Source: an uncultured beta proteobacterium (GTDB taxonomy: Bacteria > Pseudomonadota > Gammaproteobacteria > Burkholderiales > Burkholderiaceae_C). Taken from it: a stretch of 64,000 nt of DNA. Position 1 is the first letter of the stretch, and each line of letters opens with the position of its first letter. Both the position numbers and the translations under genes were made by a program. The notes under the pieces are model-generated. The model made no database searches, was not told where the DNA came from, and saw only the letters and a program-made list of their open reading frames with translations. Location: NCBI GenBank assembly GCA_963783785.1, contig CAWAOQ010000010.1, positions 139,316 through 203,315 of the forward strand. Direction: 5' to 3'. Positions 5,465-11,514 of this stretch are shown here, piece after piece.

Positions 5465-7010
5465 TCAGCCTTGCGCGGCCACGCGCTCGGCATTGCTGCG
5501 CAGCTTGTTCAACGCGGCGAGGTAGGCCTTCGCAGAAGCGACCACGATGTCCGGGTCCGCGCCCACGCCATTGACGATCCGTCCCCCTTGCTGCAGTCGC
5601 ACCGTGACCTCGCCCTGCGATTCTGTGCTGCCGCTGGTGATGGCATTGACAGAGTAGAGCAGCAACTCGGCGCCGCTCTTCACTTTCGACTCGATGGCTT
5701 TCAGGCTCGCATCGACCGGCCCGTTGCCGTCGCTCTCGGCGTGGAACTCACTGCTGCCGATCGCGAAGGCCACGCTGGCGTGCGGCCGTTCGCCCGTCTC
5801 CGACCGCTGCGCCAGCGCGAGCAGGCGGTAATGCTCCTGCTCGTGCGTGACGCTCTCGTCGCCGACCAATGCAATGATGTCTTCATCGAAGATCTCGCTC
5901 TTGCGATCGGCCAGTTCCTTGAACTTGGCGAACGCAGCATTGACATCGGCCTCGGACTCGAGCTGGATGCCCAGTTCCTGCAGCCGCTGCTTGAATGCAT
6001 TTCGGCCCGACAGCTTGCCGAGAACGATCTTGTTGGCCGCCCAACCAACGTCTTCAGCCCGCATGATTTCGTAGGTGTCACGGGCCTTCAGCACGCCGTC
6101 CTGGTGGATGCCCGAGGCGTGGGCGAAGGCATTCGCGCCAACCACCGCCTTGTTGGGCTGCACGACAAAGCCGGTGGTCTGGCTGACCATGCGCGAAGCC
6201 GGCACGATCTGGCTGGTGTCGATGCCCAGCTCCAGGCCGAAGTAGTCGCGTCTCGTGCGCACCGCCATCACCACTTCCTCGAGGGAGCAGTTGCCGGCGC
6301 GCTCGCCCAGAGCCATTGATCGTGCATTCGATCTGACGCGCGCCGCCGATCTTGACGCCCGCCAACGAGTTGGCGACCGCCAGGCCAAGATCGTTATGGC
6401 AATGCACCGACCAGATCGCCTTGTCCGAGTTGGGAATCCTCTCGCGCAGCGTGCGGATGAAGTCTCCGTACAACTCGGGAATCGCATAGCCCACGGTGTC
6501 GGGAATATTCAGCGTCGTGGCCCCTTCGTCGATCGCAGCCTCCAGCACGCGGCAGAGGAAATCGACATCGGAGCGGTAGCCGTCTTCTGGGCTGAACTCG
6601 ATGTCGTCACACAGATTGCGCGCAAAACGCACGGCCAGCTTCGCCTGCTCGAAGACCTGATCGGGCGTCATGCGCAGCTTCTTTTCCATGTGCAGCGCGC
6701 TGGTGGCGATGAACGTGTGGATCCGCGATCGAGCCGCACCGCGGAGCGCGTCGGCTGCACGCGAAATGTCGCGGTCATTGGCGCGCGCCAGCGAACAGAC
6801 CGTCGAATCCTTGATCGCCTCGGCGATCGCCTTCACCGCCTCGAAGTCGCCATTGCTCGATGCCGCGAAGCCTGCCTCGATGACATCCACACGCAGCCGT
6901 TCCAGTTGCCGCGCGATACGCAGCTTCTCGTCCCTCGTCATCGAGGCGCCAGGAGACTGCTCGCCGTCGCGCAAGGTGGTGTCGAAGATGATCAGCTTGT
7001 CGTTGGTCAT
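5465..7010 (-). pseudogene. leuA: 2-isopropylmalate synthase, interrupted by a single-base insertion
   Basis: N-terminus in ORF 6078..7010 ([21 protein letters not shown]...[17 protein letters not shown]...ECTING). The rest is in ORF 5465..6487 ([17 protein letters not shown]...). At about 6313 the coding strand reads GGC-T-CTGGGCGAG where GGC CTG GGC GAG (GLGE) is expected. Confidence 0.9.
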
Positions 7011-7027
7011 GGCTTGGCTTTCATGAA

Positions 7028-7070
7028 GAGAAAAGCAAACGGCCCGCTGGCTGGGAAGCTTGCGGGCCGT
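7028..7070 (-). terminator. attenuator-type terminator immediately upstream of leuA
   Basis: 9-bp GC stem ACGGCCCGC/GCGGGCCGT (7039-7047 / 7062-7070), followed on the minus strand by TTTGCTTTTCTCTTC. It ends about 18 nt before the leuA ATG, so it can only act on read-through from upstream. Confidence 0.5.
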
Positions 7071-7100
7071 CGATGGGCAGGAATACAGGCATGCAATCGA

Positions 7101-7157
7101 TCAGCGCGCGGGCAGCACTCCTAGAAGCAGTAGCAGCGTGACGGGATGGATCGACAT
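7101..7157 (-). CDS. candidate leucine leader peptide (18 aa: MSIHPVTLLLLLGVLPAR)
   Basis: Minus-strand ATG TCG ATC CAT CCC GTC ACG CTG CTA CTG CTT CTA GGA GTG CTG CCC GCG CGC TGA. It has five consecutive Leu codons, three of them A/T-ending (CTA, CTT, CTA), which looks unusual for this GC-rich coding sequence. It sits between the pssA stop and the terminator before leuA. No clear Shine-Dalgarno sequence. Confidence 0.5.
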   Translation of the reverse strand: MSIHPVTLLLLLGVLPAR

Positions 7158-7181
7158 GGGCCGAAATGTAGCACGGGGCAC

Positions 7182-8019
7182 TCAGCGGTGCAGGCCGGCC
7201 TCCTCGGGTTCGTCGGTAGACGTTGCGATCACGCTGACTGGCCTGCCCTTGGCCTTCTTGTAGGCGTAGACCACGTAGCCCGACACGCCGTAGAGGCAGA
7301 ACAGGGCAAACAGGACGATCGGCGGATGGATGTTGATCACCGCAATGGCCAGCGCGATCGCGACGATGACGACGAACGGAACCGTGCGCGGCCCGCCCAC
7401 GACCTTGAAGCTGTAGAACGGCGCGTTGGTCACCATCGACAAGCCCGCATACATGGTCATCGCAAAGGCCGTCCACGCAAGCCAATCGATACGCGACACG
7501 CCTCTTGAAGCCGGCGTCGTCCATGACCCAGATCAGACCCATCACCAACGCTGCGGCGGCCGGACTCGGCAGGCCCTGGAAAAAGCGCTTGTCGACCACA
7601 CCAATGTTGACGTTGAAGCGGGCCAGGCGCAAAGCCGCCGCGGCGCAATAGACAAAGGCCGCCATCCAGCCGAATCGGCCGAGCCCCTGGAGCGCCCAGA
7701 CGTAGACGATCAGTGCCGGCGCCAGGCCGAAACTGACCATGTCGCACAGGCTGTCCATCTGCTCGCCAAACGCGCTTTGCGAGTTCGTCATGCGCGCGAC
7801 GCGCCCATCCAGACTGTCCAGCACCGCGGCGCAGAAGATCCCGATCGCCGCCGCCTCGAAGCGACCGTTCATCGCCATCACAATGGCATAGAAACTGGCG
7901 AACAGTGCCGCCAGCGAGATCGCATTGGGCAGGATGTACAAGCCCTTGCGCCTCGGCCGCGGCGGCTCTTCTGCCACCGCCACCGAGGCGTCAGGGTTGT
8001 CGCGCGGGTCAGCTGTCAT
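7182..8019 (-). pseudogene. pssA: CDP-diacylglycerol--serine O-phosphatidyltransferase, interrupted by a single-base insertion
   Basis: ORF 7021..8019 carries the CDP-alcohol phosphatidyltransferase motif DSLDGRVAR...G...D...D. The C-terminus continues in ORF 7182..7499 (SRIDWLAWTAFAMTMYAGLSMV...). The junction is about 7500 (AAG AGG-C-GTG TCG). Confidence 0.85.
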
Positions 8020-9730: not shown

Positions 9731-11514
9731 CTACAGGTCTTCGGACCCTAGCAACATCTCGGAGATGCCTTGACCGGCCTTGACCATCGGCCAGACGTTC
9801 TCGGTCGGATCGGTTCGGATGTCGAGGAACACCGTGCGGTCCTTGAGGCGGATCGCCTCGCGAAGTGCAGCCTCGACGTCGCCGGGCTTCTCGACCAGCA
9901 AGCCGACGTGGCCGTAGGCCTCGGCGAGCTTGACGAAATCGGGCAGTGCGTCCATGTAGCTGTGCGAATAGCGGCCCTCGTAGTCGAGTTCCTGCCACTG
10001 CCGCACCATACCGAGGTAGCGGTTGTTCAGCGACACGATCTTCACCGGCGTCTTGTACTGCTGGCAGGTCGACAGTTCCTGGATGCACATCTGGATCGAG
10101 CCCTCGCCAGTGATGCAGAACACGTCCGCGTCCGGCTTGGCCAGCTTGATGCCCATCGCATACGGCAGCCCGACACCCATCGTGCCGAGGCCCCCGGAGT
10201 TGATCCAGCGGCGTGGCTGCTCGAATCGGTAGAACTGCGCCGCCCACATCTGGTGCTGCCCGACGTCGCTGGTGATGTAGGTATCGCGATCCTTCGTGAG
10301 CTGCCACAGCGTATCGACCACTTGCTGTGGCTTGATGACCTCGCTGCTCTTGCGGTAGGCCAGGCAGTCGCGTTTTCGCCACTCGTTGATCTGCGCCCAC
10401 CACGCATTGAGCGCCTCCTTGCCCGGACGCGCCTGCGCTTCCTTCACCTGGGCGATCAACTCCTGCAGCACATCCTTCACGTCGCCGACGATCGGGATAT
10501 CGACCTTGACGCGCTTGGAGATGCTCGACGGGTCGATGTCGACATGAACGATCTTGCGCTCGACCGAAGCGAAGTGCTTGGGATTGCCGATCACGCGGTC
10601 ATCGAAACGCGCACCCACCGCCAGCAGCACGTCGCAGTGCTGCATCGTCATGTTCGCCTCGTAGGTGCCATGCATCCCCAGCATGCCAAGGAACTGCGGA
10701 TCGCTGGCAGCAATGGCGCCGAGCCCCATCAGCGTATTGGTACAGGGGTAGCCGAGCAGGTGCACCAGTTCTCGCAACTCGGCCGAGGCCTCACCGAGGA
10801 TCACGCCTCCGCCGGTGTAGATGTATGGGCGCTTGGCGGCGAGCAACAGTTGCACGGCCTTGCGGATCTGGCCGCCGTGGCCCTTCTTGACCGGGTTGTA
10901 CGACCGCATCTCGATGCGATCGGGGTAGTGGAATGGTGCGGTCTTCAGCGACACATCCTTGGGCACGTCCACCACCACGGGGCCGGGGCGCCCGGTGCGT
11001 GCGATGTGGAACGCCTTCTTGATGGTCAGCGCCAGGTCGCGCACGTCCTTGACCAGGAAGTTGTGCTTCACGATCGGCCGCGTGATGCCGACGGTGTCGC
11101 ACTCCTGGAAGGCATCCAGGCCGATCGCCGGCGTCGGCACTTGCCCGGTGATGATCACCATCGGGATCGAGTCCATGTACGCGGTCGCAATGCCGGTGAC
11201 GGCATTGGTCACTCCCGGACCCGATGTCACGAGTGCCACGCCGACCTCGCCGGTGGCACGTGCGTAGCCGTCGGCGGCGTGGATGGCGGCCTGTTCATGG
11301 CGCACCAGTACATGCTCGATCGTGTCCTGCTTGTACAGGGCATCGTAGATGTAGAGCACAGCGCCGCCAGGGTAGCCCCAAAGGTACCTGACGCCCTCGG
11401 CCTGCAGGCAGCGGACGAGAATCTCTGAGCCGTTCGGCTCGCGTGCTGGGGAATTGGGGGAGAAGCAGGCTGTGCCGATGCGGCACGCTTGACTTCCGCG
11501 GCAGACATGTCCAT
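9731..11514 (-). pseudogene. ilvI: acetolactate synthase large (catalytic) subunit, N-terminal frame disruption
   Basis: ORF 9731..11359 covers most of the ThDP enzyme. The conserved N-terminus EPNGSEILVRCLQAEGVRYLWGYPGGAVLYIYDAL lies in the same frame but has no start codon. The SD-preceded ATG (11514, MDMSAAEVKRAAS...) is in another frame. The junction is about 11400-11440. This is the only disruption that needs a missing base (or two extra). Confidence 0.85.

Follow-up and report, generated by a model that had tools for sequence, protein, structure and literature searches.

A short region on the minus strand of contig CAWAOQ010000010.1 from an uncultured betaproteobacterium of the order Burkholderiales, lying between pssA and leuA in the 64,000-nucleotide stretch of DNA that we analysed (the window), has the build of a leucine-sensing transcription attenuator. 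On the grounds of sequence and folding models we consider it quite likely that this ribosome-mediated, leader-peptide attenuator ties the transcription of leuA, the gene for 2-isopropylmalate synthase, to the supply of charged tRNA-Leu. The region combines a Leu-codon open reading frame (ORF), an intrinsic terminator, an antiterminator built on the 5' arm of that terminator and, in the folding model, a geometry in which the position of a ribosome selects between the two structures; the start site, the translation of the leader, the stalling and the response to leucine we infer from these features. A preliminary description, drawn from the letters of the window, had proposed leucine attenuation of leuA, and what such a mechanism requires at the level of sequence and modelled folding is present at the locus and conserved in its relatives.

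The leader ORF (7157..7101) runs through 18 codons to a TGA at 7103-7101 and would encode the peptide MSIHPVTLLLLLGVLPAR; all window features given here lie on the minus strand. It holds five consecutive Leu codons, CUG CUA CUG CUU CUA (7122..7136), which would serve as the regulatory codons. The preliminary description had reported this run (CTG CTA CTG CTT CTA at 7136-7122), a hairpin and a U-tract ahead of leuA, and all three are there as it described them. Its impression that the A/T-ending Leu codons are atypical is borne out by codon usage: in 1031 long ORFs with high G+C at third codon positions, from a genome of 68% G+C, CTA makes up 0.44% and CTT 2.2% of Leu codons, and the leader run has two CTA and one CTT among its five. 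We searched for leuA in 60 relatives and read the regions upstream, all counts for the genus referring to the 22 loci with upstream sequence; in these 22 leaders 37% of the Leu codons are CTA and 10% CTT, and in the leaders of five other genera of the family the share of CTA is 50%. Since the genome carries a single tRNA-Leu gene for each isoacceptor (CAG, GAG, UAG, CAA and UAA), the run would sample three isoacceptors. When the whole 3.48-Mb genome was scanned for mini-ORFs with amino-acid runs, this was the sole Leu-run mini-ORF behind a -10-like box.

Downstream of the leader ORF lies an intrinsic terminator hairpin (7038..7071; -23.4 kcal/mol), whose 10-bp G+C stem is formed by the 5' arm GACGGCCCGC (7071-7062) and the 3' arm GCGGGCCGUU (7047-7038) and encloses a loop of 14 nt that itself contains an inner stem of 3 bp. 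The hairpin gives way to the U-rich tract UUUGCUUUUCUCUUC (7039..7025); in the genus alignment the TTT after the stem is invariant, and relatives carry GTTTTGTTTT-like tracts. Across the 22 aligned sequences 97.9% of the cells of the terminator helix are paired, with compensatory changes at two pairs, namely GC (12 sequences) versus AU (10) at one stem pair and an alternation of UA and AU in the stem within the loop.

What could keep this terminator from forming? Its entire 5' arm lies within the strand AUCGACGGCCCGC (7062..7074), which at the same time is the 3' strand of an antiterminator. The 5' strand of the antiterminator, GCGCGCUGAUCGAU (7096..7109), spans the stop UGA of the leader (7103-7101), and the helix between the two strands comprises 12 pairs, arranged as five pairs, a bulged A, four pairs, a C-C mismatch and three pairs. 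This pairing (7109-7096 with 7074-7062) supplies the mutually exclusive structure that the preliminary description had missed. In our model the ribosome is represented by a 29-nt footprint, and the nascent RNA is cut before the 3' arm of the terminator, the moment at which the decision would fall. Whichever of the five Leu codons occupies the A site, the fold of lowest energy is the antiterminator (whole fold -18 to -22 kcal/mol, helix alone -15.2 kcal/mol); once the UGA is in the A site, the footprint masks the 5' strand of the antiterminator, which leaves the helix unable to form.

The alignment supports the antiterminator as it does the terminator: 98.9% of its cells are paired in the 22 sequences, and its terminal pair is UA in 12 and AU in 7 of them, a compensatory exchange. 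The one variable base of the shared strand, G or A, is accommodated in both structures, giving GC (12) or AU (10) pairs in the terminator and UG (12) or UA (10) pairs with an invariant U in the antiterminator. The conserved pairing of both helices in this alignment (A1) exceeds that of all 500 shuffles and of all slid controls. Within the window's own sequence the antiterminator pairs 12 of the 13 bases of the arm, a level reached by 1.8% of shuffles.

A third, smaller structure in the RNAalifold consensus of the 22 sequences pairs the Leu-codon run with the conserved CUAGGAGUGCUGC (7112..7137). Of its 9 pairs two show GC to CG swaps, and the outer pairs contain 3-5 broken cells. With this modest support, the small hairpin may act as a pause or timing hairpin that is melted by the translating ribosome, and it would account for the conservation of the GGA GTG after the Leu run at the nucleotide level.

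In the mechanism that we propose, transcription would start at the extended -10 promoter at the end of pssA, on or beside the A of the leader AUG, and translation of the 18-codon leader would proceed without the help of a Shine-Dalgarno sequence. In cells with ample leucine, the ribosome would cross the five Leu codons, reach the UGA and cover GCGCGCUGAUCGAU; this would release AUCGACGGCCCGC for pairing with GCGGGCCGU, so that the terminator would form and RNA polymerase would halt in the U-tract ahead of leuA. When Leu-tRNA is scarce, the ribosome would stall at the rare CUA and CUU codons, and GCGCGCUGAUCGAU, remaining exposed, would pair with the 5' arm of the terminator as soon as this is made, so that the terminator would be blocked and the polymerase would enter leuA. 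Termination would require a ribosome at the stop codon, and transcripts reading through from pssA may supply a basal level of leuA.

The promoter on which this mechanism would depend is an extended -10 element, TGCTACATT (7165..7173; TG at 7173-7172, hexamer TACATT at 7170-7165), which is conserved and lies 7 nt before the leader ATG. In the last codons of pssA, 17 nt upstream of the -10 element, there is a -35-like hexamer, CTGCAC (7188..7193), which reads TTGCAC in several relatives; a (C/T)TGCNC at this distance from the -10 box occurs in most loci and is variable where extra DNA parts pssA from the leader. The T, A, A and T of TAnAnT as well as the C-ATG are invariant in the 22 sequences of the genus, a pattern typical of a -10 element and a start site with a purine at +1 and a pyrimidine before it at -1. 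The spacing reaches well beyond the genus: a TAnnnT stands 5-8 nt, mostly 6-8 nt, upstream of the ATG in 40 of the 40 leaders first examined, which include about 13 other families of the order, and 6-9 nt upstream in all 44 leaders of the family survey described below, so that it is common to more than 80 leaders. Genome-wide, TGnTAYAWT has 12 sites, of which two are an identical CCGTGCTACATT-N7-ATG before leader peptides. There is no Shine-Dalgarno sequence ahead of the leader ORF, as the preliminary description had already remarked, and the best explanation is a leaderless transcript, to which the conserved extended -10 box so near the ATG points as well. Thus the leader ORF probably opens a leaderless mRNA, with a predicted start at A7157 or 1 nt before it. 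As another start for the leader we considered an in-frame GTG at 7181, in a UGAGUG (7179-7184) that overlaps the pssA stop; it is open only in some relatives and probably incidental. A start there would extend the leader to 26 residues (MPRATFRP-MSIH...) and could allow termination-reinitiation on read-through transcripts.

How far is this architecture conserved? Each of the 22 loci of the genus has an ORF of 17-18 codons that fits M(S/T)IR....LLLLGV..AR*, and the Leu run, the hairpin and the U-tract are kept along with it; the conservation on which the preliminary description had made its proposal depend is thus found throughout. The exact sequence type of the window is limited to one uncultured genus. 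A search over all species genomes of the GTDB returned about 21 matching metagenome-assembled genomes (MAGs) of Burkholderiales, some of them labelled Aquincola sp., and about 19 other matches, as many as chance would give. CUA-rich leaders of unrelated sequence, such as MKSFALALLLSSHGRRQ and MNLNQLAALLLRRHGRTW, occur in five other genera of the family. In them ACGGGCGGAG, from the 3' end of the ORF, pairs with GGCCCGU, the 5' arm of the terminator, if an early Leu codon holds the ribosome, and a ribosome at the stop codon masks this pairing in the footprint folds.

For the family at large we surveyed one genome from each of 80 further genera and inspected 91 further upstream regions directly. 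A Leu leader stands directly before leuA in 44 of the 80, and all but one of these 44 leaders are followed by a hairpin of -12 kcal/mol or stronger and a U run. Most of the apparent negatives of the survey have a long-form leuA-like gene just upstream of leuA, and in each of the 11 that were tested a leader and terminator precede that gene. The 44 direct leaders, together with these 11 of 11, argue for an attenuator design that is close to universal in the family; several of the complete genomes surveyed have it. At the latter loci (L173-L183, from 11 genera) the leuA-like gene, which encodes about 570 aa, follows the leader and terminator and precedes the leuA ortholog. Complementarity between a conserved GGGTTGCTGGTT after the U-tract and the terminator loop CACCAGCAAC suggests yet another alternative pairing at these loci. 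At one locus of the family (L033, in genome G030) the pssA-leuA spacer contains no leader; a long inverted repeat found there, CTCTGCAAAGCCCC ... GGGGTTTTGCAGAGG, may be a REP-like element inserted in place of the attenuator.

The genes around the leader are arranged head to tail on a single strand in the order ilvI, ilvH, ilvC, pssA, leader, leuA. The spacer from the pssA stop (7184-7182) to the leader ATG measures 24 nt and the distance from the end of the U-tract to the leuA ATG 14 nt, where the preliminary description had given 25 and 18 nt. This 14-nt gap is too small for a promoter of leuA's own, so leuA must be transcribed through the terminator; and as there is also no terminator between pssA and the leader at this locus, the terminator of the attenuator would end the ilv-pssA transcripts too. 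The element might then be nothing other than the constitutive terminator of an ilvIHC-pssA operon, and the Leu-rich mini-ORF an untranslated coincidence. The position directly behind pssA, where the element must meet read-through transcripts, would fit such a terminator, and so would the want of a Shine-Dalgarno sequence before the mini-ORF and of a promoter call in the consensus scan. Yet a constitutive terminator so close to its ATG would leave leuA promoterless. It would also fail to explain why the ORF persists at its length, with its Leu run and very rare CTA codons, across more than 50 genera despite diverged surroundings, or why the stop codon always lies within the strand that pairs with the terminator arm. 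We therefore regard a constitutive terminator as very improbable.

Several observations nevertheless weigh against an attenuator in this genome. The consensus scan for promoters and terminators called neither at the leader; the -35 hexamer is weak, matching 2-3 of 6 consensus bases, and the terminator was missed by the simple scan because its 14-nt loop exceeds the 8-nt loop limit. In our view the conservation outweighs this result. The covariation stems from few variable columns and mainly from two sub-lineages of one genus, and is therefore moderate rather than overwhelming. The energy of the antiterminator is equalled in 18% of shuffles, and the fold of the whole leader as a single sequence has a z-score of -1.59, which is not significant alone; single-sequence fold energies are uninformative in a G+C-rich leader RNA, as the shuffle test bears out for the energy, though not for the count of paired arm bases. 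At equilibrium the terminator always wins (pair probabilities of about 1.0), so that the choice between terminator and antiterminator must be kinetic and co-transcriptional, as in classical attenuators. Furthermore, no convincing anti-antiterminator was found in the leader. The candidate examined, 5' GUCGAUC (7155-7149) with GAUCGAU (7102-7096), is paired in 85% of cells, shows no covariation and has many one-sided breaks, and we rejected it. In the fold model, untranslated nascent RNA, whether leaderless or read through from pssA, forms the antiterminator by default, and with no supported anti-antiterminator such RNA would default to antitermination. Finally, leuA is frame-broken in this assembly.

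This last point deserves closer attention. In the window leuA (5465..7010, ATG at 7010) matches NCBIfam NF002087 in two pieces, frame 1 covering profile positions 3-235 and frame 2 positions 233-512, and comparison with a 91%-identical relative maps the break to one extra base near 6309; in relatives the frames are unbroken and encode 515-570 aa. The phosphatidylserine synthase gene pssA (7182..8019; TIGR00473 match), upstream of the leader, is likewise broken by one extra base, near 7502 by comparison with a relative. Its C-terminal ending, GLHR*, is kept in relatives, and its 3' end overlaps the leader promoter. Two further genes are affected: the 5' end of ilvI (11440-11514), whose frames are intact in relatives, and a DAHP synthase gene on contig C15 of the same genome. 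The attenuator could accordingly be real in the lineage and a relic in this genome, with leuA, and pssA as well, being pseudogenes here. The two single-base insertions speak for this, and the one in leuA does not lie in a homopolymer. Breaks that recur in ilvI and in the DAHP synthase gene are, however, typical of metagenome assembly and not of multi-gene decay; both halves of leuA are about 90% identical to intact relatives, and the leader has suffered no break and aligns in register with those of the relatives. That several essential biosynthetic genes are broken alike points to assembly indels in this MAG rather than to gene decay, so that the single-base breaks are most likely assembly errors, and a relic in this genome seems unlikely to us.

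Close to the start of leuA, a GAAAG (7022-7018) that is conserved in the genus alignment is probably a weak ribosome-binding site of the gene. The five-codon ORF MKAKP (7024-7007) does overlap the leuA ATG, as the preliminary description had pointed out with the reservation that this might be coincidence, and coincidence it is: its ATG is ACG, CTG or CCG in most relatives, only the GAAAG being conserved, and we do not count it as an element. Elsewhere in the genome, leuC (contig C5, 17572-18984, minus strand) lies about 120 nt downstream of a permease gene for a branched-chain amino-acid ABC transporter. The region upstream of leuC contains no Leu leader, so that in this genome the attenuator occurs only at leuA.

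Leaders before leuA are found in many other families of Burkholderiales as well, where they end in ...LLLR(P/L/R)(A/G/R)R* (loci L030, L035, L037-L042, L044, L047, L049 and L051). They resemble the leader of the window in the spacing from promoter to ATG, in the Leu run, in their position and in a Pro-Ala-Arg-stop that coincides with a GCGCGC element (CCC GCG CGC TGA in the window). They differ in using mostly CUG codons, in ending the ORF with a short hairpin, GCGC(C)-NNN-(G)GCGC, which shows hairpin-preserving substitutions, and in often lacking an obvious U-tailed terminator, whereas the family of the window has a canonical terminator and CUA.

The existence of homologous-looking leaders of the ...LLLRPAR* type without an obvious U-tailed terminator, in many other families, indicates that a terminator-independent route is in use somewhere in the order, and the leader of the window could in principle sense leucine by such a route, through Rho-dependent termination or control of leuA translation, or the RNA could be bound by a protein or tRNA in the manner of a T-box. 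Against this stand the strong hairpin and U run directly before leuA, here as in 43 of the 44 family leaders, and an alternative pairing that targets exactly the 5' arm of the terminator; moreover, no T-box or other Rfam family matched the region, even at E-values up to 10. We give an output of this other kind very little chance at the leuA of the window, and hold to transcription attenuation.

A wider reading would make the element of the window one branch of an order-wide, uncatalogued family of leaderless, leucine-sensing leaders in Burkholderiales, an idea that we put forward only tentatively. Such a family may be recognized by a -10 box whose distance to the AUG is 6-8 nt, by a Leu run and by a Pro-Ala-Arg-stop over a GCGCGC element. 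Its output part may have been exchanged in evolution, the Comamonadaceae-like family using the classical terminator and antiterminator with rare CUA codons and many others doing without a terminator, and initiation at a 5'-terminal AUG may serve to link the first ribosome to RNA polymerase.

How does the element relate to known attenuators? A cmscan of 6500-7700 against the 4227 families of Rfam, with E-values up to 10, gave chance-level matches only (E 1-10), to unrelated small RNA families, and no T-box. The Leu_leader family RF00512 (gathering threshold 50 bits) had no match in the genome itself, and in 20 relatives nothing passed the cut-off, which the Escherichia coli control did exceed. 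The element is therefore not a member of the enterobacterial family. In E. coli the Leu run of the leuL leader favours the rare CUA codon. The enterobacterial leuL leader and that of the window have in common a short Leu-run ORF favouring CUA, alternative terminator and antiterminator structures, a fold that is set (here by prediction) by the position of the ribosome, and a place before the first gene of leucine synthesis. They differ in length, 28 codons against 18 here, and in initiation, Shine-Dalgarno-led there and apparently leaderless here. Likewise, the window shows no supported counterpart of the 1:2 'protector' helix, its leuA stands alone where enterobacteria have leuABCD, and there is no similarity in sequence or by covariance model.

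Leaderless initiation has precedents in two other systems. In Corynebacterium glutamicum the ilvBNC attenuator encodes its leader peptide on a leaderless mRNA (PMC11857589). This attenuator shares with ours a leaderless leader peptide (predicted here), a terminator with an antiterminator, and control of a gene for branched-chain amino-acid synthesis, but it belongs to an actinobacterium, is unrelated in sequence and has mixed Ile, Val and Leu codons. Its anti-antiterminator is a hairpin that sequesters the start codon, and the analogous helix in the window is without covariation support. In Sinorhizobium meliloti the transcript of trpL (the leaderless rnTrpL) starts at the AT of the leader ATG (PMC6614838). 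As a proteobacterial leader-peptide attenuator it demonstrates that leaderless leader peptides work in Proteobacteria; unlike the leader of the window it senses tryptophan, is found in an alphaproteobacterium and is unrelated in sequence. The attenuator RNA that it releases also acts in trans.

Before leuA itself, leaders of the LeuA type were found in Streptococcus by PASIFIC and defined with term-seq and 5'-end data (PMC5314783). They too have an independently evolved upstream ORF with a Leu run and a terminator and antiterminator before leuA, with no similarity to E. coli leuL; the host, however, is a Firmicute, and the leaders there are defined by RNA-end data, whereas ours is described by sequence and folding models. 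Besides Streptococcus, leuA leaders have been reported in Gammaproteobacteria and in Actinobacteria (PMC1262725), and one comparative study describes the attenuator motifs for amino acids in Rfam as essentially gammaproteobacterial (PMC3766115). We found no description of a betaproteobacterial leuA leader in the searchable literature, though the comparative work of Vitreschak et al. (2004) may list candidates. The mechanism is known and this version of it uncatalogued: the element would be a new leader-peptide attenuator without an Rfam family.

A second candidate leader occurs in the same genome on contig C15 (149213-149420, plus strand). There the ATG of MRRAAPFYFGYFWFSPPPVAREASA, a peptide with 4 Phe, 2 Tyr and 1 Trp, is preceded at a distance of 7 nt by the identical CCGTGCTACATT box, and the terminator GACCGCCGGCAGCCCCGGCGGTTTTTTGTT comes next, followed by the gene for a class-I DAHP synthase. 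Its sequence suggests a build like that of the leuA leader and a probable role as an attenuator for aromatic amino acids.

As attenuation is a textbook mechanism, what is gained here is coverage and detail rather than principle. The leader, with its predicted leaderless start, would be a proteobacterial addition to the few leader peptides known on leaderless mRNAs, and the alignments could seed an RNA family model with which such mini-ORFs would be annotated instead of being ignored or mis-called. The conserved, extreme use of the rarest Leu codon, CUA, provides a clean natural case for asking which tRNA isoacceptor serves a cell as its sensor of starvation. The element also offers a concrete, testable model of leuA regulation for a very large group of environmental Betaproteobacteria, in which leucine attenuation has so far been uncatalogued.

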